Positions 4,851-34,995 of a DNA stretch of 51,012 bases are shown piece after piece. How positions within the stretch are numbered: position 1 is the stretch's first letter; every line of letters begins with the position of its first letter. Under the pieces are notes generated by a model. It searched no databases and had not been told where the DNA came from. It was given only the letters and a program-made list of their open reading frames with translations. The DNA is from an uncultured bacterium. GTDB taxonomy: Bacteria > Armatimonadota > HRBIN16. The translations under genes and the position numbers were made by a program. The stretch spans positions 11,153-62,164 of the forward strand of contig CAZFLA010000008.1 of assembly GCA_964519405.1 (NCBI GenBank), read 5' to 3'.

Positions 4851-4856
4851 GTAGCC

Positions 4857-13567: not shown

Positions 13568-13572
13568 CCTCT

Positions 13573-14190
13573 GTGGATGAGCATCTAGGGTACCTAAAGC
13601 AGGCCCTAGCGGTAACCGGTGGTATTGCAAGCGGCAAAAGCAGAGTAACTTGCTGTCTTGCTGAACTAGGTGCTCATTCAGTAAGTTTAGATGATGTATC
13701 TCGCGCCCTTAGTGAACCAGACGGGTTAATAACCAGAGCCGTAGCAGTTAATTTAGGGCGTGAGTTCTTGAATCCGCAAGGAAGGTTAGATCGGGCACGT
13801 TTAGCCAATTATGTATTTAATAGTGCCAGTAATCGAAAGCACCTAAACAGTATTACTCATCCGTTGATATTAGCGGAATGCAACCAACAGTTAGCCAAAG
13901 CTGCTGCAATGCAGCCCAAACCACTGGTAGTGGAAGTTCCATTACTGTTTGAGTGTGGTATGCATTATCTCTTTAAGGACACACTGCTAGTTTGGTGTAG
14001 CCCTGAAGTGCAGATAGAAAGACTGCTGCAAAGAGGCCTTTCTATTGATGAAGCGCAACTGAGGATTGATAGTCAGCTGCCAGTGCGTGTGAAACGACAT
14101 CTTGCGGATTTTGAAATAGAAAATAGTGCCGACTGGAACCTCACCGAGCGTACTTTGTTGACCATATGGAAACAGTGGACTTCACGATAA
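13573..14190 (+). CDS. coaE: Dephospho-CoA kinase
   Basis: P-loop VTGGIASGKS close to the N-terminus, 205 aa, GTG start. Confidence 0.85.
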   Translation: MDEHLGYLKQALAVTGGIASGKSRVTCCLAELGAHSVSLDDVSRALSEPDGLITRAVAVNLGREFLNPQGRLDRARLANYVFNSASNRKHLNSITHPLILAECNQQLAKAAAMQPKPLVVEVPLLFECGMHYLFKDTLLVWCSPEVQIERLLQRGLSIDEAQLRIDSQLPVRVKRHLADFEIENSADWNLTERTLLTIWKQWTSR

Positions 14191-14268
14191 CCTATGGCTA
14201 AGCTCGACGGTACCCTGTGACACAAGCTACCGGTCTAACAGATGACATCTAAGTGGAGGAACCGTTAA

Positions 14269-15951
14269 TTGAAACGCAATCGGGAAACCAACTCAAGCCG
14301 GGTTAAGGGCTGGTTGGCAGCACTGTGCGGCCTCGTGGTCAGTTTAGTTGCCGTGGGTGCTCATGCCCAGACCGAGCAGGCCCAAGTGGCTGTAACCGAG
14401 TTCACTGCCCGCACTAGCTCCCAGCAGACCCTTGTTGCCAGAGCTGCTACGGATGCTGTCGCCTTGGAACTCTCTCGAAACGGGTTCGTGGTGATGTCCC
14501 GCTCTTTAGTTCAGGCTGCACTGTCTGACCTGAGCCTTGACATTCCTTTAGATAAGGTGGGCATCTCTCAACTAGGCCAGAAGTTGGGTGCCACATCTAT
14601 CGTTCAAGGCACAGTTGTAAACTTGAAGCTAGAGGGATCACCCAAGAAAGCCAGCGTTAACCTCATTGTTCGCATGACTGATCCGCTGTCCGGTGTTGAT
14701 ATCAACGGCGCTTATGTAAGCGGAAGCAGCAATCAGCGCGTTGGATACGATGGTGATGATCAGCAGCTCATTCGTGAAGCTATTACTAATGCAGCATATG
14801 AAGCCGCAAGAACAATGGCCCAATACAACCTGCCTAACGCATATGTGTTAAACACCATCGGCGTAGACGAAGTACTTATTAATCAAGGTGCTCGAGGCGG
14901 CATGTCTGTTGGTATGGAGCTTCTAGTGCAGAGCCACGGGCAGAACATTGGCCGGCTTCGGGTTTCTCGCGTAAGCGATACCGATGCAATTGCTAAGATT
15001 CTTTCTTCTTCACGTGGTATCAAACCGGAAGATAAAGTTCGCGCCATTTTCTCCGTTCCAGAAGTTGCCACAGTTCGTGGGAACACAGTGATCAAGCCTG
15101 CTAAGATGGCCAAACCAAGTGTATGGACCAGTGTAGGTAAGGTTCTGCTAATTGGCGCTGTCATCTATGGTGCTTCACAGATCGCCAGTGGTGGTAACAC
15201 CGGTGTCACCAACGCTACCGCTAGAGCGTGTATTGCTCCTGCAGGTACACCAGCTGTTATTGTTAGCTGGAAACCAAGCATGTTTGCTCAGGGCAACAAT
15301 GATCGTATGCAGTATTACCTCATTCGCGACGATGTCGCTTATGAAGGCAACACCGATGCAAAAGAAGGTTGGATCGCAACAGGTATTAACACCGATACAT
15401 CTGGTAACAGCAATGTGACCTCATATATGGATACTACCGTGGTTGCTGGTGCCCGACATGCTTATCGTGTTGTTCTTGAGTATCGCTATGTTAGCCCTGC
15501 TGACAACACCACAACTGAAACACGCTTGAGTGACCCTGTTTGGACAAACACTGTAACTACAGTGGGTATTCCAAGCTGCTTATCACCTGCAGATGGTTCC
15601 GACAGTGAAGATATTTCAGCAATGAAGTTCACCATTGCCACCGCCGCAGGAGCTGATCAGTATCAGGTTCAGATTTCAACCGATCCATTATTCCCAGCTG
15701 CCAGCACATATAGTGCTGTTCTAGCAGCCGGTAAGACAACATCTGATGAACTCAACCTAACCTCCAGCAGTTTAGTCGGTTCCAAATTGGCTGCAGCGTT
15801 TAAAGCTGCTCAGTCACAGCGTCTGCCTATCTACTGGCGAGTCGGTGCCCGTCACATCGGTGATGTCAATCCTTCACCGGATGGATGGATCTATGGTGAT
15901 AGGTTCCAGTTTGTATCATCAGATACACCACCAAATCCACCAGCAGATTAA
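14269..15951 (+). CDS. Secreted or anchored envelope protein: signal peptide, TolB-N/LpoB/CsgG-like alpha/beta domain, hydrophobic helix, and FN3-like C-terminal region
   Basis: TTG start 8 nt after GTGGAGGA. Signal peptide ...VAVGAHA/QT. VAVTEF...TDAVALELSRNGFVVMSRS...LGQKLGATSIVQGTV follows the pattern of the LpoB/CsgG/TolB-N fold. Hydrophobic helix VGKVLLIGAVIYGASQIA. The function is unknown. Confidence 0.6.
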   Translation: MKRNRETNSSRVKGWLAALCGLVVSLVAVGAHAQTEQAQVAVTEFTARTSSQQTLVARAATDAVALELSRNGFVVMSRSLVQAALSDLSLDIPLDKVGISQLGQKLGATSIVQGTVVNLKLEGSPKKASVNLIVRMTDPLSGVDINGAYVSGSSNQRVGYDGDDQQLIREAITNAAYEAARTMAQYNLPNAYVLNTIGVDEVLINQGARGGMSVGMELLVQSHGQNIGRLRVSRVSDTDAIAKILSSSRGIKPEDKVRAIFSVPEVATVRGNTVIKPAKMAKPSVWTSVGKVLLIGAVIYGASQIASGGNTGVTNATARACIAPAGTPAVIVSWKPSMFAQGNNDRMQYYLIRDDVAYEGNTDAKEGWIATGINTDTSGNSNVTSYMDTTVVAGARHAYRVVLEYRYVSPADNTTTETRLSDPVWTNTVTTVGIPSCLSPADGSDSEDISAMKFTIATAAGADQYQVQISTDPLFPAASTYSAVLAAGKTTSDELNLTSSSLVGSKLAAAFKAAQSQRLPIYWRVGARHIGDVNPSPDGWIYGDRFQFVSSDTPPNPPAD

Positions 15952-16068
15952 CTTGGGTTTAGTGTAAAACAAATACGAGTAATATGGCCTGTCCTAAGAA
16001 AATGCGGGCAGGCCGGCTCCTTGTGACGAAGCCGGAATTCGTAGGTTAGATTACGCGGGAGGATACCT

Positions 16069-19000
16069 GTGATAAACATCATACGGCGGATAACTCAGTG
16101 GTTCGCTCCGTTTGCGTTGCTTTTAGCAGTTATTTGCGGCAATGCAGCTATGGCGGCTACTGACCACGCACCAAGTGAGGCCATTGTGTGGGCCAATGCT
16201 GGCGTAACGAGTCAGCAGATTTCCGATTTGGCAACCAACAACGGATACAAAGTAATTCCATTACTGATGGATGATGTATACCGTATCGTTAAACCGACCA
16301 CCACAAAGGGTCGAAGTGGTTCCGATTTGGTTGATGCATCTGGGGATATCATTTCCCTATATCAGAAATCCGGACTATGTAAATATGTAGGTCAGAACCG
16401 GCTTGCGAAACTGGCACAAGTAACACCTTCATCTACGCCCAATGACCCTAGGTATGCAGAGCAGTGGGGCTTGCCTCTTATGAAAGCTCCTGCAGCATGG
16501 GATGTAGAAAAAGGTAAGAGTGATGTTGTCGCAGTCGTGATTGACTCGGGATGTGTGTTAACCCACCCTGATCTGAACTCACCAAGATTGATGAAGTCAT
16601 TAAAGGATGCTAATGGCAATGATGTCATGCTTGATCCTGGTGATTTAGATAATGATCCGTCAGCTGTTTATTACGCTGATGACGCCGAAGGGGCATGGGA
16701 ACATGGTACTCATGTAATGGGTATTATCGGTGCTACTGCAAACAACGGTATCGGAGTCTCAGGAGTTGCACAGCAGAACGTAAATTTGCTGCCCATTAAG
16801 ATTGCGCGGTGGGATGCGACTAATAAGGTATGGACCTTACCAGAAGACGCTCAGATAAACTCGATAAAAGTTGCTATCAACGCGAAGCAATTTCTTCCCA
16901 AGCAACTTGGTGTGTCTGAAGTAAAGATGGTAGTAAACATGAGCTGGGGCGGAAATAGTTTATCCGACACTCCAGATCTTAATGATCCATTAAATGCATT
17001 GCTCCTTCAAGCCGCAAACAACTATAACATTTTGTTTGCAATTTCCGCCGGTAATGGTGCGACTGAAGGCAACTATCCTTTCTACCCTGCGAATATGGCA
17101 TCACAGAGTAAGAATATTTTCTGTATCGCTTCTGTAGGCCCAACAAGCAAGCGCGCGTATTACAGTACTTATCGTCCATATACAACAATCGCCGCGCCAG
17201 GCGGTGATATGAGCATGGGTAGTACAGCAGGGATTTTAAGCTGCGGCCCTAACAGATTAGGTGCTGGTGTTGATGACTACATTTATATGCAGGGAACATC
17301 GATGGCTAGCCCAATGGCTGCTGGTGCGATTTCCATCTTGTTATCTAAAGGCTTCCGCCCAGATACCATTAAGGACATCTTAACCAGAACAGCAAACGCA
17401 GCAACTTATACAGTTCCTAATGCTGAAGTCGGATATGGTATCATCGATCTTTATAAGGCTGTAACCTCTAAGACGGTTAGCATTACATTAAACAGCAGTA
17501 ACCTAAGCAAAACAGCCGGTGTATACACCTTTAGAACTAAGAGCAACACCTTCCAGTTCAATTCGTATAACACATCAGCTAAACTGATTACCGCCAAATT
17601 GGATGACGAAGTCGTTGATGCAGCTAACATCAGCTATACTTCGGTTGACGATAAGAACGGCGTAGTTGATATTACCGTTCCATCTGATACCGGTACCCAC
17701 ATTCTGAAAGTTACTGCGGCTAACAGAGATGATCATACTGAGACAATTTCTGAAACGGTAAACTTCAACGTATCTCCTTATGTTTATGACATAAGCAGCA
17801 CTCCCGCAAAGATGCGTTTAATATCTTTACCGATTTATCAGCATCAAGATGATTCAACAAACAGCGTACCTGCAGATCAAATTCTGAGTGCCGATGTAGA
17901 TGGCGGATCATCTGCAGCCTTTACTCTTCTGCGATGGCTTCCTAGTAATAATGATGGAGCATGGTCATCATGGTCCAGCACAGGAAGCAAAGACGCTTTG
18001 GCTTCATTTGAAAACAACGGTGTAGTCGCTGGTTATCCAGCTCTAACCGCTCAAGGTAAGTCGATGAGCCCAGTTGGCCTGGGATATTTCGTAAAGAGCA
18101 ATGTTAATCTGTATGCTGTTTCCACGGGAACAGTGACATCAGCGAGCCCATATGAAGTTCAACTGCAAAAGGGATGGAACCTAATAGGTAACCCATATAC
18201 CTTCGATGTAGCTTGGAATGGCTGCCAGATTAAAACAGATGACGGTAATACATACGGAGTTACTGCGGCTGCAACTGAGAACCTGATTCTTCCAAATGTA
18301 TACGGGTACGATAATGGTTCTTACTATTGGTTAACCGCACCGTTCGGTCTGCTTCGAGCTTGGGAAGGATACTGGATTAAGGCTCTTGAGCCTTGCAAAC
18401 TGGTATTCAATCCTGCATCAGGCGAAGCTGCAAAATCTAAGAGCAACACCGAAACATGGAATGTTAAATTCGGCCTAACGTTAGACGGACAGCCTGCAGG
18501 TAATGTAGTGATCGGCGGAGCAAATAACGCATCCGACGGCTACGATCTGCTAGATGTTATTGCTCCACCAGCAATCAACCCCAACATTAAGTTGATGGGT
18601 GTGGATAGTGCTCTTCTTAAAGACGTTAGAAGCAACAGCGGAAACCAGAAATGGTACATGACTGTTCCTAGCGATGGAACGAAAGCTACCATTTCATGGT
18701 CGGTTACAGGTTCAGTACCTTCAAGAAGCCGATTAATGATTACGGACCTTGCCAGTGGAAGTAAGTCAATCGTAAGCAAATCAGGTGACATTACTTGCAC
18801 ACCAGGCAGCAAGCTGCTTGTAGAACAGCTTGAAAATGGTACAGGTAATCTTCGCATCAGCAGCATGAGGGTACGCCCGTCACGAAGCGGTGCTGTAAGT
18901 GTTGATTACACTTTAAGTGCATCTGCCACAGTAAAGGCTACTGTATACGACGCATCAGGTAAATCCGTCGCTGACATTCCTGTAGGAACAAAGAGCAGCG

Positions 19001-19140
19001 GGCCAAGTTCGATGAGCTGGAATGGCAAAAACCGAGAAGGTGTGTCTTTACCAGCAGGTTTATATACCATGACTCTAGATGTAACAAACGAAGAAGGGAA
19101 CCGTGTGACGGCATCTCAGCCCGTGGTTCTCGTCAGGTAG
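16069..19140 (+). CDS. Secreted S8 subtilisin-family serine protease with shared C-terminal cassette (GWNLIGNPY module plus FlgD-Ig-like end domain)
   Basis: GTG start after GGGAGGA, with a signal peptide. Catalytic triad blocks VAVVIDSG (Asp), HGTHVMGIIGA (His) and GTSMASPMAAGA (Ser). The C-terminal 97 aa are paralogous to the ends of the next two genes. Confidence 0.9.
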   Translation: MINIIRRITQWFAPFALLLAVICGNAAMAATDHAPSEAIVWANAGVTSQQISDLATNNGYKVIPLLMDDVYRIVKPTTTKGRSGSDLVDASGDIISLYQKSGLCKYVGQNRLAKLAQVTPSSTPNDPRYAEQWGLPLMKAPAAWDVEKGKSDVVAVVIDSGCVLTHPDLNSPRLMKSLKDANGNDVMLDPGDLDNDPSAVYYADDAEGAWEHGTHVMGIIGATANNGIGVSGVAQQNVNLLPIKIARWDATNKVWTLPEDAQINSIKVAINAKQFLPKQLGVSEVKMVVNMSWGGNSLSDTPDLNDPLNALLLQAANNYNILFAISAGNGATEGNYPFYPANMASQSKNIFCIASVGPTSKRAYYSTYRPYTTIAAPGGDMSMGSTAGILSCGPNRLGAGVDDYIYMQGTSMASPMAAGAISILLSKGFRPDTIKDILTRTANAATYTVPNAEVGYGIIDLYKAVTSKTVSITLNSSNLSKTAGVYTFRTKSNTFQFNSYNTSAKLITAKLDDEVVDAANISYTSVDDKNGVVDITVPSDTGTHILKVTAANRDDHTETISETVNFNVSPYVYDISSTPAKMRLISLPIYQHQDDSTNSVPADQILSADVDGGSSAAFTLLRWLPSNNDGAWSSWSSTGSKDALASFENNGVVAGYPALTAQGKSMSPVGLGYFVKSNVNLYAVSTGTVTSASPYEVQLQKGWNLIGNPYTFDVAWNGCQIKTDDGNTYGVTAAATENLILPNVYGYDNGSYYWLTAPFGLLRAWEGYWIKALEPCKLVFNPASGEAAKSKSNTETWNVKFGLTLDGQPAGNVVIGGANNASDGYDLLDVIAPPAINPNIKLMGVDSALLKDVRSNSGNQKWYMTVPSDGTKATISWSVTGSVPSRSRLMITDLASGSKSIVSKSGDITCTPGSKLLVEQLENGTGNLRISSMRVRPSRSGAVSVDYTLSASATVKATVYDASGKSVADIPVGTKSSGPSSMSWNGKNREGVSLPAGLYTMTLDVTNEEGNRVTASQPVVLVR

Positions 19141-19155
19141 TGGAGGAATACAGGC

Positions 19156-21861
19156 ATGAGTATTACCTGTAAGAAGAACGGCATAGTGCCTGTATTGGCA
19201 CGAACAGCTGCTGCTGTGACTATGCTATTTGTCGGAACTGCGAATTCATGGGCGATCATGTCGCCCATAGTTCCGATAAAGGTGTCCGATGATAAGCTAT
19301 CGGCATCATCGTATAGAATTTTAGTGCGCAACGAAAAAATTGAGTTCGCTCAAGGTACAGGAAATCAGGTTGCCCACTTCTCCGATGGAACTAATCCTAT
19401 TATGGAGGACTGTGCCGGACGCATTTCTATGGGCACAGTTTCAGGTGCAGGTTTTACATCGGAAGATGACAATCTCGCACTGCATGGAATGCACAGTTGG
19501 CCTGCGGGCAACGCCAGTTATATTGACGTTGGAACGGGCACAACGGCTGCTGATATGACATGGACCATGTATGGCGGTGACGGTGCTTGGTCAACAAGCC
19601 CGTTCCTAGACCAAACAAAAAGGCTCATGACCAGCAGTTGGACTGTTGACGGTGTTCTCGTCACACAGAGTGTGGAATTAATAGGTTCATGGGCTAAGAT
19701 CTCATGGAAGCTGACCAACAACAACACTGAAGGCCGTTATGTAAATATGCGCATGACACTGTCTCAGATGTTGAACCTAATGAATATTCCATATGTAGCT
19801 ATTCCTGGATATGGCGTAGTTAAATCAGATACGACAATCTCTGGAGCTAATATGCCTTCAGAATTGAGTATTTTGCCATCTCAACAGGCAGTTGCTCCTG
19901 AGTTAAAGATACTTTTCAAGGGAAACAATCTTGCTGAACCCAGCTTGATTCAAGTCGGTGATCACTCACTTCCTGGTGGGGGACGACTTGGTGATGGTAT
20001 GGATCCTAACGGAGCTGTGCCTTCGCATCCAATTGGGTGGCTAGGTGCACGAGTAACATTTAAGCCAACAACCGTTGCTGCAGGTGCCTCTGTAACAATG
20101 AGCACCATGATCGGTTTAGGATCAAGCAGCTTAAACGCACCTAGCGGCAGCAAGTTCTCTGCAGAGACAGAGTGCCGTCGTTCTGTGAGCTTGAATTCCT
20201 CTATCGCAGGATATTATGATCCATCCACCATGGATATATATGGTTATACAACCAACCTGCATGATGAAACACAGAATCGCTCACTTAGCAATGTAAAAAT
20301 GACAATCAGCCTTCCAAAAGGTCTAAAGCTGGTTTCGGGGCAGAGTCTTGCTCAAACAATCGACACAGTCGAACGTGCTGAAACCAAAGGCGTAAGCTGG
20401 AAAGTTCAGCCGGACGGAACTGCATACGGGGATCTTGAGTATTCGGTCACTGTTACATGGGATCAAGTTACACATATAGTAACTCGTAAAGTATTTGTGC
20501 CAATGATTCCTCAAACCGATGTGTCTTCCGTGTATCAACTGAAAAGTTTCGGATACTCGTTTAGCAACCCATCTCCAGCTACAGTATTGGGCGTTGCTGA
20601 TGGAAGTGCATTATCCGAGACATATGATATGTTTGGTTGGGACAACAGCGCACAGAAGTATGTAGCCGGTGATGGACTTACGGAAATCTCCCCTGCTACT
20701 GGCTACTGGCTGCGTGTTAGAAATTCCGAAGATGCAGGCATCAAGCCATTGTATGGTGCAATCGAATCAGGAGACCCATTTGGTACATCTCCATATCGAG
20801 TGAACCTACCGGCTGTGATGAAAGGTTGGACATTAATTGGCAACCCATATCCATATAGCGTGGCTGTGGGCAACCTGAAGATCTTCGATCGATCTACACA
20901 GAACACTCTGACAATCGCCGATGCCGTTACACAAGGTAAAGTGCGAGGCACCATATTTAGATGGCAGCCGAAGAGCGGCTCTTATAATGGTGGATATCAG
21001 TCAGTATCAATCGTGGCTCAACCTGGGGAACTAATGAAGCCAGGCGATGGTTACTGGATGTATATCTCAGGTAAATATTTAGGTCTTGAGTATTACGGCT
21101 CCAGCGTAACTGGTGCTACTCAAACACTAACCACACCAAAAAGCGCATCTAATGGCTGGCGAGTGACCGTCGGCGGATCGGTTGCCGGTATAGCTGGCGG
21201 CGAAGTGGCCGTTGGCGGCAGCGCATCTGCAAGTGATACCGAAGATGGTTTAGATACACCTGTCCCACCAGCAAGTCCTGAAACAGCAATACAGATGAGT
21301 TTAGGCGGAGGTCTTTCAGAAGACATCCGAACACTTACCGGACGAAAAGTATGGGACTTAACGGTGAGTGCTCCGCAGGGAACGGACAGTGTCAATCTTC
21401 AGTGGAATGGCATGAAGAGTGTTCCATCTAACGTACGTCTAACGCTTGTAGACAGCAGTACTGGACGCAGCAGAGATATGCGCGGTAACAGCAGCTACGT
21501 AGTAGATATGAGCGGAAAGACCACAAAAACTCTAAAAGTAGTGGCTGAACCGGCAGGAAGTTCGGCTCTGCGAATCAGCAGTGTAAGAGTTGGACGGACC
21601 CGAGCCGGATCTGTTCAGTTGAGTTATAACTTATCCGATAACGCAACCTGCAGCGTGCGAGTCATGGGTGCAAATGGCAGCGAAGTAACAACACTAGCTG
21701 CTGCAGGATCCAATACCCGCGGAGTCAATACCATCACGTGGAATGGACATGATGCACAAGGTGTCAACGTACCGGCTGGTGCTTACCTCATGGAAATCAC
21801 AGCCAGTACGGAAGACGGTCAGACTGCAAAAACCGTTCAACCTGTAATAATGACACGCTAA
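19156..21861 (+). CDS. Secreted 901-aa protein, orphan N-terminal region plus shared C-terminal cassette
   Basis: Starts 15 nt after the protease stop, with GGAGGA SD. Signal peptide ...FVGTANSWA. Contains KGWTLIGNPYPY and GDGYWMY motifs. The terminal domain ...ITWNGHDAQGVNVPAGAYLMEI...QPVIMTR is FlgD-Ig-like. Confidence 0.8.
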   Translation: MSITCKKNGIVPVLARTAAAVTMLFVGTANSWAIMSPIVPIKVSDDKLSASSYRILVRNEKIEFAQGTGNQVAHFSDGTNPIMEDCAGRISMGTVSGAGFTSEDDNLALHGMHSWPAGNASYIDVGTGTTAADMTWTMYGGDGAWSTSPFLDQTKRLMTSSWTVDGVLVTQSVELIGSWAKISWKLTNNNTEGRYVNMRMTLSQMLNLMNIPYVAIPGYGVVKSDTTISGANMPSELSILPSQQAVAPELKILFKGNNLAEPSLIQVGDHSLPGGGRLGDGMDPNGAVPSHPIGWLGARVTFKPTTVAAGASVTMSTMIGLGSSSLNAPSGSKFSAETECRRSVSLNSSIAGYYDPSTMDIYGYTTNLHDETQNRSLSNVKMTISLPKGLKLVSGQSLAQTIDTVERAETKGVSWKVQPDGTAYGDLEYSVTVTWDQVTHIVTRKVFVPMIPQTDVSSVYQLKSFGYSFSNPSPATVLGVADGSALSETYDMFGWDNSAQKYVAGDGLTEISPATGYWLRVRNSEDAGIKPLYGAIESGDPFGTSPYRVNLPAVMKGWTLIGNPYPYSVAVGNLKIFDRSTQNTLTIADAVTQGKVRGTIFRWQPKSGSYNGGYQSVSIVAQPGELMKPGDGYWMYISGKYLGLEYYGSSVTGATQTLTTPKSASNGWRVTVGGSVAGIAGGEVAVGGSASASDTEDGLDTPVPPASPETAIQMSLGGGLSEDIRTLTGRKVWDLTVSAPQGTDSVNLQWNGMKSVPSNVRLTLVDSSTGRSRDMRGNSSYVVDMSGKTTKTLKVVAEPAGSSALRISSVRVGRTRAGSVQLSYNLSDNATCSVRVMGANGSEVTTLAAAGSNTRGVNTITWNGHDAQGVNVPAGAYLMEITASTEDGQTAKTVQPVIMTR

Positions 21862-21884
21862 CGGTAACGAGGAGTATTTAAGAG

Positions 21885-24800
21885 ATGATACAATCCAGAA
21901 AACTCTGGACCCGTTTACGGTACTTAATGTGCTTGGTGTTCATGATGTCCCTATACCTTAGTATAGGGACTCGGAATGCACAAGCAACGCCGAAACTGTC
22001 GTGGGGCGGTGATCTTGTTACCCCTCACCATAATCATTCGGTAATCGGATGGGGTGAATATGCGACAGGTGCAGGATGTGATGGTACTATTGCATCATGG
22101 TTTGTCATATATGGTCCAACAATATTACCTGATGCTGCTGATGAGATTGTCACAGATGTCAGGTTGTATGCTGGTGGCTCGTATAACAAGGAATCAAATC
22201 CCCCATATGTTAATTTTATTGGATCTCTGTATAGCCCATCATGGGTGATACGTGGAGATGCACTTGGATCTGGAACGTTAAGAATCGAGATCACATGGCA
22301 TAAGGGAACCGGAGCTGACCAATATTTGCGAAGCGATTTTCCTGCTCCATTTACGAATGTTGTAGTATCAGGAAGTCATGCTCAGCTTTTCAGACAAGCG
22401 TTATGGCCCGATCGATCAACATCGCCACAGGTACAAAATGACCCACTTCTAATCGTCCAGAATGGCCAAGACATTCGAGGACGAGACGAAGGAAGTAGTT
22501 CATCGGTATATGAGTTCCGTATTCGTTATCGGCACCCGGGAGGATTACCGCCATTTGCTAGTGGTTTGTTCAAGGCAGATGGAGGGTATCCTACTGGATA
22601 TAGATATAAGGATGGATTTACCGCATCAGGATCACAGGCATTTAAAAAGTGGGTGCCTGATATTAACAATCAAGGTGGTAATGGTTCAGTACCACTGAGA
22701 AATGGTGTCGCTGTTGTATTTGGCAGCAAAAACCCGAATATCGTTCAGAACCTTCAGGGCATATACCACTATATGCAAGCAGTAAAATATGATGGCACAA
22801 AAATGGTGCCCTATAGTCCTACTTCGGCTGACTATGCATCTAATGATGGTGTAATCTACCGATGGAGATGGGAACCCGGACATTCTGAGAACAACAATGG
22901 ACAAGCTGGAAGGCCGGGTTTCTTCCCAGGTACTGTTGGTGATAACCGGTTTGGTGTAGGTTTCGAAAACATTACAGGTAAAGACTTCCAGAGCAGCATG
23001 AATGGGTATCAGTTCAGTGCCGGATCGGAATATTTCCCTGCATTTGATGATACTATGCCTCAAGCGGCTTGGTTTAGAAGTGTTAAACCTGGAATTCTTG
23101 ATGATAACCCAGATACAAAGGAACCATGGGATCCGCGCGTGGCTCCTAATGGAGAAGTTATCCCTAACTACCCACTTCCGGCAACAGAGAATCCAAAGAT
23201 ACTTACGAGCCTTTGGGGTGCTGACTGGAGTTCGAGTGTATCCAACTGGTTGTATCTAGGTACTATATCTGCTGGTGCTAAGTCCACCCGTGACTTAGTA
23301 AATCCCGACAAGGATTTAGTTACGCGCCAAGGTCCGTTCCATCCACTAGCATCTGGATATACCCAGATGAACAGGAATATCATCTTCGATACCCCTAATG
23401 AAAGTGGATCGAACCGTGAGATATCCCTACTAAAGAACCAAGTTCCTGTGTTCTATGGAACAAAGGCTGGCGAATATGTCTTTAACATTCGTTATTGGGG
23501 CCAAAATATTCCGTCATCAATCTATGTAGTAATTAAGAACCGCGTAACGAATTTAACACGAAGGATCCCGTTGACACTAACTGCAGTCCCAGGAGAAATC
23601 ATTATAGATTCTGTGAGTGCTAAAGCAGCGTTAATACCTTCAAATGCGGGAGATACATATTCGGCCACAGTCAACTTGAGTGACATGGTTGGTTCCAATG
23701 AGTATTATTTTGAAGCTACAGATGGTGATAGGATAGTTAACTATCCCGTTCGAAATTCGGACGATCCTATGTGGCCATCACAGAATGTGTTCGTTGGACC
23801 ATATGTGAATAATCCACCTTCGATTAGTAACATTAGCGTTTCTCCTTCAACAGGAACGTATAACGACAAGATTACCTTTAAGGTGACCTACAGCGATCCT
23901 GATAAGCAGCGTCCACAGCGATATCGACTATGGCTGAAGGTTAAGCCGTATACCGTGACCGATGGTGGAAAGACATTTACAACTGAGTGGCGTTCATTCA
24001 TTATGAACCCAGTAGACCCAATCCCTGCTACTTCCGATAACGAGGTTCTTTCGAGCCCGCAACTGGTAGATTGGGACAAGGGCGTTCAGTTTGAATACAC
24101 AGTAGATGCTAATACTGAGCTGTGGTCACTTGGCGATGCCAAGAGTATGACCGGCAAGTATTTCTTCGAGTTCATGGATAGTTGGGGTGACCCCGCTGAC
24201 CCAGCTTGGAAGAACCCGCTTGACTACTTGACTTCCAACGTTCCTGGTGAAGTTGTTGTTAGCCCAGCAGGTACATGGATCGACAAAAACAACGACAACA
24301 GAATTAACTATTCTACAACAGATAGTGAAATTATCGCTGATGTCGCTGCTAATGGTCCTACCATTCAAATCGAAGTTAAGCCATATGTGGTGATGCCATC
24401 AACAACAGTAGGCGCCGAAATCGACTGGGCACCTGCAGCTGATGTTCTCGGTGGTGAAGATAAGAACGAGATTATTAGTGGAACACCTCGTGTTGCCGTC
24501 TATACAAAATACGTTCAGAAGAACGCACGTGCTGCATCTAACGTCACTGTTGAAACCGCTCCGTTAAGTGACAATGAAATTCTTAACGAGAAGTGGAAAG
24601 ATGCCTCTTGGAAGCCTTCAAGTGCATCTACAACAGTCGTTGCAGCAGCAACCGATACATCAACAGATTACGTGAATGGTAAGGGATACAAAGCCCTATT
24701 ACCTGACATCGCCACTAACAACTATGTCTATCGCGTACAAGCTACTAATAACGCATCAGATGAGTTTGGAAGTGTCGTTGGCCCATGGCAGCGTGTTACC

Positions 24801-27131
24801 AAAGCCATAGCTATTACAGAGCCTACTCTTGGCTTAAAAGACGCATTGGATGCTGATGTTGTTGCTGAAGCGCCAGCTTCTGGTGATGACAAAACAACAT
24901 ATACATTCCGTGTTGTTTATAAAGACACACTAGGCTTAGGCCCAGGCACAAAAGACGGTGCATTCGTCAACATGCTGATCGGCATTAACAAGATGTCCTT
25001 CCCGATGTCTGCAGTAAAAGCCGACGGAACAGCTTATACACCAACCTCAGACGACTATATCGCAGGTGTTATCTTCCAAGTGAAGTTGACTCCAGATGAT
25101 GTTGCTAAGATTGGTCTTGGGCAGCATGACTATTCATTCATAGCGAATAACGGCACAAAAGACGCTGTTGCTCTAACAGGAGCTTCGAAGGTTACTATCA
25201 ACCAGTTTGATAAGTTGAGCGCTGCTGGAGTGTCAGTATTGCGCGATGCTGAAACAAACGCAATAACAGGTTACACCTTCCGTGTAACTTATACCGACGC
25301 TCAGGGCAGCAAGCCAATTGGCGGTATCGAGCAGGTCAACGTAACTGTTGGCGGTAAGACATTCCCAATGGATACTGAAGCTGCTGGTATCAACTACGTT
25401 AGCGGTGGAATGCTCAGCAAGACAGTTGCTGCTTCCGATCTGCCACAAGATGTAGTTGTGCGCAATGCATACTTCAGATTTGGTGAAGGAGTTGGACAAC
25501 TTACAATTAGTGGTCTCGCATCACTAGTTAAGACCAGTTCGTCTGTCTCTTACACATCAGTTCAGAACCAACTGCCAGTTAAGTTCAACGTTAAATACGT
25601 TGGCGGCGTCAGCAATGATGCTCCTATGGCCGACAGCATGAAAGTTACTATTAAGAGTGCTTCAGCTACCAAGAGCTTCCCACTGACAATATCTGGTAAC
25701 GCACCTACCGATTGGACTAAGGGTGCTGCCTATACAGCAACTATCAGCAGCGACGAGTTCTTTACTGCTGGTGACTACACCTTCACCTTCAATGGAATGG
25801 ACAGCAACGGTTTAAGTTTGGAACTAAGTAATACGGCATTCAAGTTTAGTATTGCTTCAATTCCAACATCAACCTTCGATATAGAAGCTGGATTAGATCT
25901 CGTTGCACTGCCATTAGTGCCAAGCAGTTCTGTGCTTGCTGACTTCATCGGTATCGATCCTGCAACTATCAATGCCATGACATATACTGGCAGCAGCAAT
26001 GCACCATATGCAGCAGCTGTAACAGCAGATGCCAACAGTGGTTATTGGATTAAACCTGCAGCCGCAATGACCTTGACACTTAAGGGCAGCCAGTCCGATC
26101 AAAACGCAGCACAGAGCTACACTCTGCGCAAGGGCTGGAACCTTATTGGTGTTCAGTTTATCAATGGTGCAGCGCTGGCCGATGCCACCATCACCATTGG
26201 CGGTGTTACCACAAGCCTGGCACAAGCTGGTCTGCAAGACAGTGTTGGTAACTGGGCATGGGGATACAACAAGACGAGTGGTTCGTATAAACTCGTGGAC
26301 GGTAGAAATGGTAATGCCGGTGTATTGAACATCGGACGTGGTTACTGGATTTACAGCTGGGTAGAAGGCGCTGTATTGAAGCTTTATGCTCAGTCAGGTG
26401 TTGCCCCTGCATCAGTTGCGAAATCCAACGTGACGGTTGATTGGGCAGCAAACCTAAAAGCCACTTGCGGTGACCGCAGCGATACAGCAACCATCGGTGT
26501 TGCATCACAGGCAAGTCGAACTCTGAAGCCAGCCGCTTTAGCTGAGTATGTTCAGATCGTTCTGAACAGCAATGGTCTCGTAGCTGGTGAAGATATTCGA
26601 CGAACTGGCAACCTAACCAATGTATACACATTTGACGTCATTACTGACCAACAGAATCAGCCTGTAACTATTCAGCTTGACGGAATAGCTAGACTAGCTG
26701 GAAAATATGACGTAATGTTAACAGACATCTCCGGTAATGTTACAAGAAGCCTAACTGGATCTGGCAGCTATACATTCAACAGTGGAGCAGCAGCAAAACG
26801 CAGCTTCAAGGTAACTGTTGGACCTAGAAGCAATCAGAGCCCTGTTATTACAGCACTTCGTGTAGCTAAAACCCGTGGTGGTGTAGCACAGATCAGTTTT
26901 GGTCTGAGCAATAATGCAACAACTACTGTCGAAGTAATGGATGTCACCGGTCAACTTGTTAAGCAGCTTAATTCAAGCAGCGTAAGCAAGGGCACCAACA
27001 CTGTTACATGGGACGGCCGCAACCAAGCTGGTGTATCAGTGCCGGCTGGTGCTTATATCGTGAAGGTAAGAGCAGATTCGGAAGATGGCAGCTCTAGCCA
27101 AGCGATGAGCCCCTTCGTGGTAGTTCGCTAA
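21885..27131 (+). CDS. Secreted 1748-aa giant protein with internal repeat modules and the shared C-terminal cassette
   Basis: Starts 23 nt after the previous stop, with GAGGAG SD. Signal peptide ...IGTRNAQA. Four modules of the type T-(Y/F)-T-F-(R/K)-V-x-Y-x-D lie at about 23.8-25.7 kb. Contains KGWNLIGVQ and GRGYWIY motifs. The terminal domain is ...VTWDGRNQAGVSVPAGAYIVKV...SPFVVVR. Confidence 0.8.
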   Translation: MIQSRKLWTRLRYLMCLVFMMSLYLSIGTRNAQATPKLSWGGDLVTPHHNHSVIGWGEYATGAGCDGTIASWFVIYGPTILPDAADEIVTDVRLYAGGSYNKESNPPYVNFIGSLYSPSWVIRGDALGSGTLRIEITWHKGTGADQYLRSDFPAPFTNVVVSGSHAQLFRQALWPDRSTSPQVQNDPLLIVQNGQDIRGRDEGSSSSVYEFRIRYRHPGGLPPFASGLFKADGGYPTGYRYKDGFTASGSQAFKKWVPDINNQGGNGSVPLRNGVAVVFGSKNPNIVQNLQGIYHYMQAVKYDGTKMVPYSPTSADYASNDGVIYRWRWEPGHSENNNGQAGRPGFFPGTVGDNRFGVGFENITGKDFQSSMNGYQFSAGSEYFPAFDDTMPQAAWFRSVKPGILDDNPDTKEPWDPRVAPNGEVIPNYPLPATENPKILTSLWGADWSSSVSNWLYLGTISAGAKSTRDLVNPDKDLVTRQGPFHPLASGYTQMNRNIIFDTPNESGSNREISLLKNQVPVFYGTKAGEYVFNIRYWGQNIPSSIYVVIKNRVTNLTRRIPLTLTAVPGEIIIDSVSAKAALIPSNAGDTYSATVNLSDMVGSNEYYFEATDGDRIVNYPVRNSDDPMWPSQNVFVGPYVNNPPSISNISVSPSTGTYNDKITFKVTYSDPDKQRPQRYRLWLKVKPYTVTDGGKTFTTEWRSFIMNPVDPIPATSDNEVLSSPQLVDWDKGVQFEYTVDANTELWSLGDAKSMTGKYFFEFMDSWGDPADPAWKNPLDYLTSNVPGEVVVSPAGTWIDKNNDNRINYSTTDSEIIADVAANGPTIQIEVKPYVVMPSTTVGAEIDWAPAADVLGGEDKNEIISGTPRVAVYTKYVQKNARAASNVTVETAPLSDNEILNEKWKDASWKPSSASTTVVAAATDTSTDYVNGKGYKALLPDIATNNYVYRVQATNNASDEFGSVVGPWQRVTKAIAITEPTLGLKDALDADVVAEAPASGDDKTTYTFRVVYKDTLGLGPGTKDGAFVNMLIGINKMSFPMSAVKADGTAYTPTSDDYIAGVIFQVKLTPDDVAKIGLGQHDYSFIANNGTKDAVALTGASKVTINQFDKLSAAGVSVLRDAETNAITGYTFRVTYTDAQGSKPIGGIEQVNVTVGGKTFPMDTEAAGINYVSGGMLSKTVAASDLPQDVVVRNAYFRFGEGVGQLTISGLASLVKTSSSVSYTSVQNQLPVKFNVKYVGGVSNDAPMADSMKVTIKSASATKSFPLTISGNAPTDWTKGAAYTATISSDEFFTAGDYTFTFNGMDSNGLSLELSNTAFKFSIASIPTSTFDIEAGLDLVALPLVPSSSVLADFIGIDPATINAMTYTGSSNAPYAAAVTADANSGYWIKPAAAMTLTLKGSQSDQNAAQSYTLRKGWNLIGVQFINGAALADATITIGGVTTSLAQAGLQDSVGNWAWGYNKTSGSYKLVDGRNGNAGVLNIGRGYWIYSWVEGAVLKLYAQSGVAPASVAKSNVTVDWAANLKATCGDRSDTATIGVASQASRTLKPAALAEYVQIVLNSNGLVAGEDIRRTGNLTNVYTFDVITDQQNQPVTIQLDGIARLAGKYDVMLTDISGNVTRSLTGSGSYTFNSGAAAKRSFKVTVGPRSNQSPVITALRVAKTRGGVAQISFGLSNNATTTVEVMDVTGQLVKQLNSSSVSKGTNTVTWDGRNQAGVSVPAGAYIVKVRADSEDGSSSQAMSPFVVVR

Positions 27132-27142
27132 AACGAAGATCT

Positions 27143-27168
27143 GGATGACCGACTTCGGTCGGTCATCC
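27143..27168 (+). terminator. Strong hairpin terminator closing the three-gene operon
   Basis: Perfect 11-bp stem ggatgaccgac / gtcggtcatcc with a ttcg tetraloop. The downstream T tract is weak (aaacatttg). Confidence 0.65.
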
Positions 27169-27233
27169 AAACATTTGCAATCATCATACATGTGAGAGAT
27201 TTATAATACTCTCATCGGTAAGGAGATATCTGG

Positions 27234-28001
27234 ATGAATATCAATCGACGGTCGACCGTCTCCCAATTGACCATCGTGATGGCAATGGGTGCACTGCTGG
27301 CTCCTATATTTGGATCAGCAGCAAAAGCAGAAACAGTTCCTGCACCTCAGCCTAAAAAGAGCTTACTGGTGATGCCCGTAGAAAAGAACTACACAGAAGA
27401 AAGCACAGAAAACTTCCTGCGCGATCTCGGTCGTTCAATCCGCGGCGCCGTCAGTATGAACTCCAATATGGATGTTGTAGAATTCACAGAAAAAGACCCA
27501 ACTGTCCAGCGCGCATTAAGCGACAGCTCAATTCGCCGCGAAGACATCAAGAACGCCAGCGAGAATTCCGCTGTTACTGCACGTATCGCGTCTGAACTTG
27601 GTGCTGATTATGCATTGACAACTTCTGTGGACGAGTATGCTTACGATATGGATAAGGGCACTTTATCAGCATCAATTAGCTGCCAGATCGTGGACGTTCG
27701 CAGCAAGAAGGCAACAAAAGTGATTTCGGTTAGTTCCGATATAAAAGGCGACAAATCGCAGTTCCTAGGTGAACTGGAGACTAAGCTTAAAGCTGATCTA
27801 TCCAACAAGGCAGCCGTTGAACTCTTTGGTGCGATGCCTGAAGTTACCGTGACTACAGTCAAGGCAAAGAAGAAGAGTAACAACAATGTACTATGGTGGC
27901 TATTAGGTGCTGGCGTCATCGCAGCAATCGCTGGCAACAGCGGCGGCGGCAGCAGCAGCGGCTCTGGTAACAGCGTGGTTAATCCTCCAGCTACTCCATA
28001 G
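27234..28001 (+). CDS. Secreted TolB-N/LpoB/CsgG-like domain protein with C-terminal hydrophobic helix and Gly/Ser tail (paralogous architecture to 14269-15951)
   Basis: AAGGAG SD. Signal peptide ...IFGSAAKA/ET, with no lipobox Cys. LLVMPVEKN...IASELGADYALTTSVDEY follows the same fold pattern. The C-terminus is KKKSNNN-VLWWLLGAGVIAAIAG-NSGGGSSSGSGNS. Confidence 0.6.
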   Translation: MNINRRSTVSQLTIVMAMGALLAPIFGSAAKAETVPAPQPKKSLLVMPVEKNYTEESTENFLRDLGRSIRGAVSMNSNMDVVEFTEKDPTVQRALSDSSIRREDIKNASENSAVTARIASELGADYALTTSVDEYAYDMDKGTLSASISCQIVDVRSKKATKVISVSSDIKGDKSQFLGELETKLKADLSNKAAVELFGAMPEVTVTTVKAKKKSNNNVLWWLLGAGVIAAIAGNSGGGSSSGSGNSVVNPPATP

Positions 28002-28017
28002 TAATACCTTGTCTAAA

Positions 28018-29958: not shown

Positions 29959-29971
29959 ATGAAATCCACTA

Positions 29972-30014
29972 AATGCCATCGGAGGCTGCATGCGCATCTC
30001 TCCGATGGCATTTT
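29972..30014 (+). terminator. Rho-independent terminator between convergent genes
   Basis: 13-bp stem aatgccatcggag / ctccgatggcatt followed by ttg. Confidence 0.65.
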
Positions 30015-30023
30015 GCTGCATAT

Positions 30024-31514: not shown

Positions 31515-31689
31515 CCCTGCCTTTCATGGTCACCAACACTGATATTTTACCTGTTTCAGCCCAAATATTTGCACAGACAACGATTATACAGAGCGATTAT
31601 CGGTGACTTGGCTACACAAGTGATACTTGCAAAGAAGGTGTAATAATGCTACAATGCCGGCGTATCCTTATTATTTTATGGAGGCTGAT

Positions 31690-34787: not shown

Positions 34788-34995
34788 TGTGGAGGATGAT
34801 TAACCAAACCCATATGGGTATGTTACATGAACTGTATCAGCTGTGAGTTTGTTTGTCAAAACCCAACTGCGGACAATTGCGTGATCGTAGGGGAGTGTTC
34901 TCAAGATGCACTGAGGGGGCACTCACTAACAGGATTTTGCTGTGAACACGGTGAATAACTGCATCATATCATCACCTCTTGTTTGGGAGGCATCC

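Follow-up and report, generated by a model that had tools for sequence, protein, structure and literature searches.

A conserved six-gene locus of Armatimonadota encoding three putative surface proteins with a common C-terminal cassette related to T9SS cargo tails

The window, i.e. the whole 51,012-nucleotide stretch of DNA from an uncultured Armatimonadota bacterium that was analysed, contains six consecutive genes, referred to as g1–g6:

14269..15951, plus strand: g1, 560 aa
16069..19140, plus strand: g2, 1023 aa
19156..21861, plus strand: g3, 901 aa
21885..27131, plus strand: g4, 1748 aa
27234..28001, plus strand: g5, 255 aa
28009..29958, plus strand: g6, ~649 aa

The gaps between g1–g2, g2–g3, g3–g4 and g4–g5 are 117, 15, 23 and 102 nt respectively, g5 and g6 are separated by ~7 nt, and GGAGG-type SDs lie upstream of the genes. 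The g6 start is most likely TTG at 28009 or GTG at 28018, both of which were preferred to GTG at 27907. The open reading frames, strand and spacing of g1–g5 are all as claimed in a preliminary description of this DNA, which had seen g2–g4 as a tight three-gene operon; the short gaps of 15 and 23 nt stand, but the actual unit is the six-gene block. Its neighbours are housekeeping genes (polA, S1 and coaE), a placement that is also conserved, and no T9SS gene was found in the window.

A signal peptide is encoded by each of g2, g3 and g4. In g2 it is followed by a propeptide, an S8 subtilase domain (aa ~122–467), an Ig-like linker and the cassette considered below. The subtilase call made in the preliminary description was borne out by a Pfam score of 125.8 bits; the DSG/HGTH/GTSMA triad is readable in the sequence, and the nearest solved relatives are extracellular subtilisins, with the alignment starting at aa 122. 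Proteins of the g2 type make up 49 of the top 150 cassette matches. The g3 product comprises a signal peptide, a conserved β-sandwich of ~300 aa that matches no Pfam family, a NEW3-like Ig domain and the cassette; its AF2 model is all-β (pLDDT 77.7), its N-terminal part also occurs in 26 of the top 150 cassette matches, and within its family NPCBM_assoc is present in nine of the 27 members and FlgD_ig in all of them. Between signal peptide and cassette, g4 encodes a region of ~1300 aa in which four or more weak Ig-like repeats (motif xYxFRVxYxD) can be recognised. Internal repeats had been noted here before and, weak as they are, they proved significant, with local scores of 57–68 against a null of 27.7 ± 5.1 (maximum 48). 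Orthologues of g4, of 1650–2450 aa, lie at the equivalent position in relatives, and the N-terminal regions that had been termed orphans are in fact conserved families.

These N-terminal parts differ from one another, and all three proteins end in a common cassette of ~445 aa. BLASTP alignments of the tails, spanning 325–370 aa, gave E values of 1e-41 (g2/g3), 2e-30 (g3/g4) and 4e-19 (g2/g4), a likeness that, as judged from these alignments, is far above chance level and upholds the earlier claim of one tail on three unlike secreted proteins. A cassette HMM of 448 positions matched g2, g3 and g4 and none of the remaining open reading frames in the window. The cassettes and their terminal domains are located as follows:

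17800-19137, plus strand: g2 cassette, aa 578-1023
20521-21858, plus strand: g3 cassette, aa 456-901
25884-27128, plus strand: g4 cassette, aa 1334-1748
18847..19137, plus strand: g2 terminal FlgD_ig/CTD-like β-sandwich (FlgD_ig E 6e-14, 52.2 bits), ending in ...PVVLVR
21565..21858, plus strand: g3 terminal FlgD_ig/CTD-like β-sandwich (FlgD_ig E 8e-9), ending in ...PVIMTR
26838..27128, plus strand: g4 terminal FlgD_ig/CTD-like β-sandwich (FlgD_ig E 7e-16), ending in ...PFVVVR

The cassette has four parts, namely two duplicated 'GWNxIGxP...GYW' β domains, an Ig-like domain and an FlgD_ig tail ending in Arg, which is the last residue in 118 of the top 150 matches. Its domains 1 and 2 form an internal tandem duplication (hhalign 95.7%); the cassette first described is real, with its length and duplicated start now added. 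The preliminary description had named FlgD_ig and S8 as Pfam families to look for, and they were found above cut-off in g2–g4 and in g2 respectively; in the AF2 model of g3, strands 807–899 build the terminal domain. The non-FlgD part of the cassette is matched by 5651 metagenomic clusters at 50% identity, and other cargos joined to the cassette include M6, PD40, CarboxypepD_reg, SdrD_B, FG-GAP, WD40, propellers and adhesin repeats, which supports the proposed logic of variable cargo and common tail beyond this locus.

The gene set had been said to match no named system, which fails for the cassette: profile comparisons show its homology to the C-terminal part of FCB T9SS cargo. The same cassette precedes true NYPNPF-type T9SS tails in MAGs of Bacteroidota (Cyclobacteriaceae) and Calditrichaeota and in Ignavibacteria-like and Chlorobiaceae-labelled MAGs, and a profile with FCB sequences matched Flavobacterium johnsoniae RemA (residues 1022–1398, E 5.5e-8) and the PorU CTD (E 1.3e-5). 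The RemA link is transitive, because a profile built without the FCB sequences no longer recovers it. Could g2–g4 then be ordinary T9SS cargo, with type A CTDs recognised by PorV/SprA and a canonical or divergent T9SS encoded elsewhere? The cargo range of the cassette is like that of T9SS, the homology extends over the pre-CTD and CTD of FCB cargo, RemA included, g4 marginally passes TIGR04183 (25.1 bits against a cut-off of 23), and the end of g3 shows weak similarity to the PorU and PorZ models at their C-termini. However, g2 falls under that cut-off (20.4 bits), g3 has no TIGR04183 match, and PF18962 stays below its cut-off (18.6 in g4 against 27). Among the 51 top cassette-family members, Por_Secre_tail occurs in only two, as against FlgD_ig in 42 (S8 is present in 29), and an Armatimonadota-only profile gave 1e-10 for FlgD and only 0.02 for the PorU CTD. 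In addition, the YPNPF motif of the FCB relatives is absent from the Armatimonadota tails, which have no NYPNPF and end in ...P-x4-R rather than ...KKMLLLK, the window holds no T9SS genes, and T9SS is not known from outside the FCB group. We therefore regard ordinary T9SS cargo as very unlikely, and the Armatimonadota tails, to judge from their sequences, are not of the ordinary Por_Secre_tail type, despite the marginal pass of g4. Sortase or exosortase logic, which had also been suggested, was rejected for g2–g4 because they have neither a C-terminal TM helix nor a sorting motif.

Conservation of gene order had been put forward as a check, and the arrangement is indeed kept across deeply diverged Armatimonadota: the block is syntenic at every evaluable locus (Fimbriimonadales, Chthonomonadales and others) at 25–35% amino acid identity. 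The order g1-g2-g3-g4-g5-g6 is unchanged at loci L001, L004 and L022, whereas g4 precedes g1 in L002 (Fimbriimonadales) and L003 (an Armatimonadota MAG); g2-g3-g4 are present at the Chthonomonadales loci, L005 has g4-g5-g6 and L013 has a reduced block. Synteny of g1 was found in L001–L004 and L013, and g5 lies immediately 5′ of g6 in L001–L005 and L022. Genes g1, g5 and g6 were seen only at Armatimonadota loci, always with cassette genes alongside. Synteny of this depth across orders, together with the constant company of g1, g5, g6 and the cassette genes, excludes for practical purposes that unrelated surface-protein genes are adjacent here by chance. In clustering, a cassette joins those of the same gene type and not the others of its own genome, and the triplication is therefore ancient.

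Two intergenic elements of the block are also conserved:

15952..16068, plus strand: g1–g2 spacer with two GC hairpins and the g2 SD
27142..27169, plus strand: g4–g5 hairpin with a 12-bp GC stem and a UUCG loop

The last ~75 nt of the g1–g2 spacer, for which no Rfam family match was obtained, are near-identical in relatives, although coding-DNA identity to these is just 66–70%. The g4–g5 spacer folds with z = −4.15; its hairpin is retained in L001 and L004 via one compensatory change (A-U to G-C) and is followed by a second stem-loop adjoining the g5 SD. This hairpin, previously called a strong terminator, is strong and conserved, but has no U-tract on the plus strand, and, since g5 and g6 remain syntenic, it does not mark the end of an operon in evolutionary terms. 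It could nevertheless divide two transcription units.

The g6 product consists of a signal peptide, an Ig domain matched by Pfam Big_1 and Invasin_D3, an LptA/LptD_N-like jellyroll (aa ~138–236) and a barrel of ~24–26 strands ending in W. With its AF2 model (pLDDT 74.9) the top 14 Foldseek matches were all LptD (E 3e-13 to 9e-9), with ushers next at ~1e-6, all at low TM-scores of about 0.3; the predicted fold thus agrees with the LptD-like barrel first noted downstream. The g6 family profile matched LptD (E 1.2e-3) and LptA (E 0.05) in the PDB, and every named full-length homologue is from Armatimonadota. The g1 product has a signal peptide, a PelC/LpoB-like N-domain, a small β domain, a hydrophobic helix (aa ~285–305), two FN3-like domains and a Pro-rich C-terminal end, and that of g5 a signal peptide, a PelC/LpoB-like domain, a basic cluster, a hydrophobic helix, a Gly/Ser-rich stretch and the end ...NPPATP. 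The two N-domains are homologous (hhalign 96.5%, E 9e-10), as expected from the TolB-N/LpoB/CsgG-like anchored type proposed for both. Their PelC/LpoB matches are weak (E 0.01–0.05), e.g. E 0.013 for the g5 family profile against PelC (5t11); the g5 Pfam matches to LpoB and DUF3280 are also weak, and Pfam LpoB matched one g1 homologue. All g1 homologues are hypothetical proteins, the named ones from Armatimonadota MAGs.

These folds might indicate a supra-operon for envelope biogenesis that includes no protein translocon of its own, in which g6/g5 would be a divergent Armatimonadota LptD/LptE-like LPS exporter, g1 a related periplasmic envelope protein and g2–g4 abundant surface-layer or periplasmic proteins with some other exit route, if any, and the cassette as an OM/LPS anchor or oligomeriser. 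The best structural matches of g6 to full-length LptD, the LptD_N/LptA signals in its family, the place of g5 directly 5′ of g6, fitting a plug or partner gene, the setting among polA, S1 and coaE and the structured hairpin between g4 and g5 all argue for it. Yet no Pfam or NCBIfam LptD model matches g6, LptD_N is significant in only five of 29 relatives, the extra Big_1 occupies the N-terminal edge, the expected docking site of LptA, g5 (like g1) has no lipobox, and a profile of g5 and its orthologues, run against solved structures with E values of up to 10 admitted, matched no LptE. That g5-g6 are strictly linked to cassette genes across orders, also in L013, is unexpected for a general LPS machine, and we consider this explanation unlikely, if a serious contender. 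It seems distinctly improbable that g2–g4 are filament or fibril subunits polymerising through their Ig-type cassette domains, with g6 as an usher-like pore whose periplasmic Ig domain receives them. The FimD and PapC matches of g6 and its ~24 predicted strands would suit an usher, three co-expressed subunits with a common module would fit a heteropolymer, and 8jmw, the S8 peptidase entry 'Fibril form of serine peptidase Vpr', is matched both by the g3 model and by domains 3 and 4 of the cassette. Against this, LptD matches g6 approximately seven orders of magnitude better than ushers do, the jellyroll is LptD-like, Pfam found neither a PapD-like chaperone nor pilin-size subunits, and Vpr was matched only weakly (E 1.8e-3, or 0.019 when the profile contained Armatimonadota sequences alone).

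We tentatively favour a locus, specific to this lineage, that exports and anchors surface proteins; it would be akin to T9SS cargo modules and differ from them in its outer-membrane partners. In such a cell-envelope locus, which would have been inherited vertically through Armatimonadota, g2 (as a subtilase zymogen), g3 and g4 would be exported by Sec, and the cassette would lead them, as surface export and anchoring module, to an outer-membrane apparatus of g1, g5 and the g6 barrel with its periplasmic Ig domain and jellyroll. Beneath this barrel, which would offer passage or docking, g1 and g5 may form periplasmic rings or a plug; the N-terminal parts of g2–g4 would be displayed on the surface, where the three proteins would probably form one stoichiometric complex, and the g2 subtilase would serve there as a protease or might process tails in the manner of the T9SS protein PorU. 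For folded cargo of 100–190 kDa a barrel the size of LptD is narrow, which counts against export via g6, as do the low TM-scores of g6, the weak PelC/LpoB matches and the missing lipoboxes against the export reading as a whole. Of the cargo-sorting scheme first proposed, the conserved order and the common tail on variable cargo hold and the three-gene unit and sortase logic do not; sorting itself we infer. The locus may represent an undescribed route for placing proteins on the cell surface.

Among known systems, chaperone–usher pili (FimD/PapC) share with g6 a large barrel and a periplasmic N-terminal β domain, but here there are no chaperone, pilins or plug signal, and LptD matches far better. 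LptD–LptE resembles g6–g5 in the periplasmic jellyroll preceding a large C-terminal barrel and in the small α/β protein encoded next door; it differs in that g6 matches no LptD barrel model and carries an N-terminal Big_1, g5 resembles neither LptE nor a lipoprotein, and the pair is always linked to cassette genes. PelC–PelB and CsgG-type outer-membrane export use a periplasmic ring of PelC/LpoB/TolB_N-like proteins beneath or inside a barrel. A PelC ring with a PelB porin is the logic that g1/g5 and the barrel would match, with N-domains weakly like PelC, LpoB and DUF3280 encoded beside it; g1 and g5, however, are not lipoproteins, each contains a hydrophobic helix and ends in a Pro-rich stretch, to which g1 adds FN3-like domains, and the putative substrates are proteins rather than polysaccharide or curli subunits. 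T9SS cargo with type A CTDs (RemA, PorU and PorZ) differs in its FCB host and in its tails, those here having no NYPNPF, ending in ...P-x4-R and scoring mostly below cut-offs, and its partners are SprA/PorV/PorU instead of an LptD-like barrel and PelC-like proteins. The likeness lies in the Sec signal peptide, varied cargo and terminal Ig-like β-sandwich, and in a ~445-aa cassette homologous to the region up to and including the true tails of FCB MAG proteins; the tail-bearing protease g2 recalls PorU, although it is a serine subtilase and PorU a C25-type cysteine protease.

The stretch is chromosomal DNA with a GC content of approximately 48%, in which the six plus-strand genes designated g1 to g6 have bipA, alr, a femAB-like gene, dnaN, parB, polA, S1, coaE, glgA and groEL as housekeeping neighbours. 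The block is laid out as follows, the conserved spacers being those aligned with L001, one of the loci from other genomes used for comparison (L001–L022):

14269–15951, plus strand, g1, candidate PelC-like protein
15952–16068, conserved spacer
16069–19140, plus strand, g2, predicted subtilase with C-terminal cassette
19141–19155, conserved spacer
19156–21861, plus strand, g3, N-domain with C-terminal cassette
21862–21884, conserved spacer
21885–27131, plus strand, g4, repeat-containing region with C-terminal cassette
27132–27233, conserved spacer
27234–28001, plus strand, g5, candidate PelC-like protein
28009–29958, plus strand, g6, LptD-like fold, from a likely start

The positions of g1–g5 agreed with those in the preliminary description; the spacers measure 117, 15, 23 and 102 nt, each with a GGAGG-type SD sequence. 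A mechanical ORF call placed the start of g6 at GTG 27907, overlapping g5 by 95 nt; TTG 28009 or GTG 28018 is the likely start, as this gives a normal signal peptide approximately 7 nt past the g5 stop codon, with g5 and g6 nearly abutting. The strong terminator proposed at 27143–27168 had to be rejected, as the hairpin at 27142–27169 is strong but has its T-run on the minus-strand side, leaving the plus strand without a U-tract. Spacers within the block showed 78–91% and 73% nucleotide identity with L001, against 66–70% for the coding DNA, and approximately 75 nt upstream of the g2 start were almost identical across three genomes. The g4–g5 spacer (folding z = -4.15) keeps its hairpin via a compensatory change. 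These structured spacers may be cis-regulatory or processing elements; a search of 13500–31600 matched no Rfam family. Elsewhere in the window, a FemAB-family peptidyltransferase gene adjoins that of alanine racemase (3732–5963) in what is a diderm-type genome, which suggests interpeptide bridges in the peptidoglycan, and a large DUF6785/DUF6784 protein (34942–36954) has two neighbouring DUF6263 paralogues (38606–39610 and 40019–41005).

The common C-terminal region that had been noticed in g2, g3 and g4 was confirmed at 27–32% identity (BLASTP E values of 1e-41, 4e-19 and 2e-30). An HMM of this cassette, built from relatives, spanned residues 578–1023 of g2, 456–901 of g3 and 1334–1748 of g4, and matched no further ORF in the 51 kb. 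From an alignment of 26 cassettes and an AF2 model of g3 (pLDDT 77.7), the cassette consists of four all-beta units. The first two are copies of one domain of approximately 90 aa, the GYW domain (motifs hxSxP...W/Y...GxGYW and GWNxIGxPF...GYW), with homology between the copies (hhalign 95.7%, E 9e-9); the third is Ig-like, with the motifs W..L.A....D..N.IG...A.DG.D..D..KPP ... VTL.WP., and the fourth is an FlgD_ig sandwich. No Pfam family covers the first three units. FlgD_ig (PF13860) exceeded its gathering cut-off of 27 bits in all three proteins (52.2, 35.8 and 58.5 bits for g2, g3 and g4), Pfam also found the S8 family in g2, and the cassette profile matched solved FlgD structures with E values of approximately 1e-10. 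The terminal residue was arginine in 118 of the 150 best cassette relatives. The last two cassette domains (positions ~300–413) also matched an S8 peptidase of 803 aa, PDB 8jmw_A, ‘Fibril form of serine peptidase Vpr’ (E 1.8e-3), which was likewise among the Foldseek matches of the g3 model; this is a hint that S8 proteins bearing tails of this kind are able to polymerise.

The N-terminal cargo differs between the three proteins. Judged from its sequence, g2 is an ordinary extracellular subtilisin that has a propeptide and whose Asp/His/Ser triad (VIDSG, HGTHV and GTSMA) is intact: PF00082 scored 125.8 bits over residues 153–457, and solved subtilisins aligned from residue 122 with an E value of 2e-26. 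The N-terminal regions of g3 and g4 had been called orphans, but these are conserved families: among the best 150 relatives, the S8 part of g2 occurred in 49, the g3 N-domain in 26 and the g4 region in at least four. The internal repeats reported for g4 proved weak but real (local scores of 57–68, where shuffled sequences averaged 27.7 ± 5.1), and xYxFRVxYxD motifs recur among them. A Foldseek search with the whole g3 model gave matches of a generic multi-Ig kind (alpha-2-macroglobulin and receptors, TM ~0.1), of which we made no functional use, and an exact look-up of the g2, g3 and GroEL proteins gave no match.

An earlier word-indexed search with a three-sequence profile had returned only six weak matches, so that an exhaustive HMM search was needed. 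Its query was the cassette without FlgD_ig, and 5651 representative clusters passed E ≤ 1e-3, 2037 of them E ≤ 1e-10 and 112 E ≤ 1e-30; the cluster names were all hypothetical or unnamed. Among 51 top matches, Pfam detected FlgD_ig in 42, S8 in 29 and Por_Secre_tail (PF18962) in two; 30 other full-length matches carried CarboxypepD_reg, PD40, SdrD_B/SpaA, Peptidase_M6, FG-GAP, WD40 and other domains, 22 of them with FlgD_ig. Such varied cargo indicates that the cassette is a C-terminal module of general use in secreted or surface proteins, beyond the g1–g6 operon. In Capsulimonadaceae (L015, 6719–10270) and another member of the Armatimonadota (L019, 6039–8555), proteins have the GYW double domain as their last part and lack the Ig-like and FlgD_ig units, indicating that the cassette is modular within the phylum. 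A second class of proteins among the matches of the exhaustive search (P0059, P0067, P0070, P0121, P0123, P0130, P0133, P0135 and P0146) likewise has only the GYW part, often in several copies, and a different C-terminal motif with a cysteine approximately seven residues from the end (for example ...CELIFASE, ...CTLRLKTF and ...DCVLILKK), which may be a further sorting signal, used in a different lineage.

A scan for the cassette pattern in one genome per GTDB species yielded 21 loci, the closest being OW818647.1 and OY781964.1 (Armatimonadota MAG), at approximately 70% amino acid identity, with others in Fimbriimonadales, Chthonomonadales, Capsulimonadaceae and a few FCB MAGs. Gene orders, mapped by BLAST and HMM, were:

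L001 and L004: polA-S1-coaE-g1-g2-g3-g4-g5-g6
L022 (GCA_026003195.1): g2-g3-g4-g5-g6
L002 (Fimbriimonadales) and L003 (Armatimonadota MAG): coaE-g4-g1-g2-g3-g5-g6
L006–L009 (Chthonomonadales): g2-g3-g4, then the end of the locus
L005: g4-g5-g6
L013, 6245–11313 (Fimbriimonadaceae MAG), reduced: S1-coaE-g1-one g3-like cassette protein-start of a g6-like gene at the contig end

The arrangement of the block is thus conserved, in variants, across Armatimonadota loci, and the probability that we are dealing with chance adjacency is negligible. In the reduced block of L013, neither an S8 gene nor g5 lies between the genes listed. Genes g1, g5 and g6 occurred in Armatimonadota loci only, each time beside cassette genes, and the named homologues of g1 and g6 were Armatimonadota without exception; the window therefore derives from a member of this phylum. 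In a neighbour-joining tree, cassettes grouped by gene type (g2, g3 or g4) and not by genome, from which it follows that the triplication is older than the orders and that the copies have not been homogenized. These data clearly show a six-gene envelope locus, conserved in the phylum, with three ancient paralogous tails.

The remaining genes of the block encode the presumed outer-membrane partners. The AF2 model of g6 (pLDDT 74.9) contains a Big_1 Ig domain, a long-strand beta structure at residues 138–236 and approximately 24 further strands by DSSP. Against the PDB, its 14 top Foldseek matches were all LptD (E values of 3e-13 to 9e-9, full-length alignments, TM ~0.3), followed by ushers at approximately 1e-6. 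The g6 family profile matched LptD (7omm, E 1.2e-3) and LptA (E 0.05), and LptD_N (PF03968) was matched by five of 29 family members (best E 1.6e-5), although not by g6 itself. The N-domains of g1 and g5 are homologous (hhalign 96.5%). Their resemblance to PelC is weak: the g5 profile matched PelC with an E value of 0.013, and Pfam LpoB/DUF3280 matches were weak. Single-sequence PDB searches with g1 and g6 gave no match, and the g1 profile found only noise in the PDB. Both g1 and g5 have cleavable-looking signal peptides of the SPase I type (AHA/Q and AKA/E), with no lipobox cysteine. Further on, each has a cluster rich in lysine, then a hydrophobic helix, a stretch rich in Gly and Ser, and a proline-rich terminus (g1, residues ~275–310 plus the C-terminal end, ..NPPAD; g5, residues ~210–255, ..NPPATP); g1 additionally contains two inserted FN3-like domains. 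The charge distribution of both is contrary to what the positive-inside rule predicts for an anchor in the inner membrane, and an outer-membrane-spanning helix is one possibility. A GlyGly-CTERM-like reading of these C-termini was discarded, as the order of the elements is reversed.

Tentatively, we favour a reading in which the cassette directs g2–g4 to the surface and anchors them there via g6, g5 and g1. The main rival, possible if somewhat unlikely, is that g5 and g6 are the phylum's divergent LptE and LptD, the cassette merely anchoring or oligomerizing proteins. The fold of g6 is LptD-like by Foldseek, and LptD has a C-terminal 26-strand barrel; however, g6 matched no Pfam or NCBIfam LptD barrel model at E ≤ 0.1 and, where LptD has the lipoprotein LptE as its partner, the neighbouring g5 is an alpha/beta protein without a lipobox and without an LptE match. 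A filament with an usher-like pore is improbable, since the usher-like fold of g6 is secondary only (E ~1e-6) and the block contains no chaperone or pilin families of a chaperone–usher pathway.

The surface placement of large proteins in diderms outside Proteobacteria and Bacteroidota is largely unknown ground, and the Armatimonadota are widespread and barely studied. In this context, the locus is a concrete and testable candidate: a universally conserved set of genes in which T9SS-like cargo modules would be coupled to PelC-like proteins and a barrel resembling LptD. Pfam lacks at least three of its domains or regions, namely the GYW domain, the N-domain of g3 and the barrel of g6, and g1 and g5 have sub-threshold matches only. 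A functional coupling would be relevant to the origin of the T9SS C-terminal signal, to whether Lpt-type barrels can be recruited for protein display and to the annotation of thousands of metagenomic proteins that are listed as hypothetical and ‘FlgD Ig-like domain-containing’. Should g6 turn out to be no more than LptD, the phylum's divergent LPS translocon and its major surface proteins would still be defined by the locus. The proposal of an undescribed surface or secretion module is supported in part, the observation behind it having been borne out; ‘undescribed’ is judged here by the absence of curated families and names alone.

Comparison with sorted substrates elsewhere set aside those of sortase, exosortase and rhombosortase, as g2–g4 end in a beta-sandwich and a terminal arginine, with no C-terminal hydrophobic segment, TM helix or motif; the g1–g6 block has no sortase-type gene. 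In MAGs of Cyclobacteriaceae (L012, 143 bits), Chlorobiaceae-labelled bacteria (L016 and L017) and Calditrichaeota (L018), the cassette precedes NYPNPF tails with ...KKMLLLK-type ends, and P0001, P0002 and P0021 likewise carry it before NYPNPF-type tails. These data clearly show that the cassette is common to the Armatimonadota locus and FCB T9SS cargo. A profile including FCB sequences matched Flavobacterium johnsoniae RemA 1022–1398 (8gl6_D, E 5.5e-8) and the PorU CTD, the T9SS C-terminal domain (E 1.3e-5). In contrast, an Armatimonadota-only profile lost RemA and gave E 0.023 for PorU, with FlgD still at 1e-10; the RemA link is thus transitive, and direct homology of the Armatimonadota cassettes to RemA was rejected. 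Ordinary T9SS cargo is very unlikely. TIGR04183 (cut-off 23) was marginally exceeded by g4 (25.1), but g2 fell below it (20.4) and g3 did not match, and with PF18962 (cut-off 27) g4 scored 18.6 and g2 and g3 gave no match; none of the T9SS core components SprA/Sov, PorV, PorU and GldK/L/M/N was found within the 51-kb window. The (N)YPNPF motif that opens T9SS CTDs, present as NYPNPFNP or AYPNPFS in L012, L016 and L017, is missing from all 23 Armatimonadota cassettes, which have LRIxxxxVxxxR in its place and end in ...P-x4-R instead of a K-rich last strand. The Armatimonadota tails form a separate branch of the FlgD_ig/CTD fold.

Armatimonadota are a diderm phylum outside the FCB group, and PorU and PorZ belong to the resident attachment and processing complex of the T9SS. 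A more specific proposal, which we regard as rather doubtful, is that Armatimonadota possess a T9SS-independent secretion and attachment system for CTD-type cargo, in which the ancient GYW-GYW-Ig-FlgD_ig module would be recognized by the LptD-derived outer-membrane barrel g6 with the PelC-like ring proteins g1 and g5, and the subtilase g2 with its tail would join g3 and g4 in a resident surface complex for attachment or processing, with a PorU/PorZ-like role. If so, the CTD cargo module either is older than the SprA-based T9SS translocon or moved independently of it. With regard to the PelC/LpoB/CsgG family, g5 scored 13.8 bits for LpoB against a cut-off of 22.3, a resemblance only. Our data clearly show that the outer-membrane partners of the cassette locus are unlike those of any named secretion system; the locus combines a cargo module of the CTD type with outer-membrane partners that are different and specific to the lineage.
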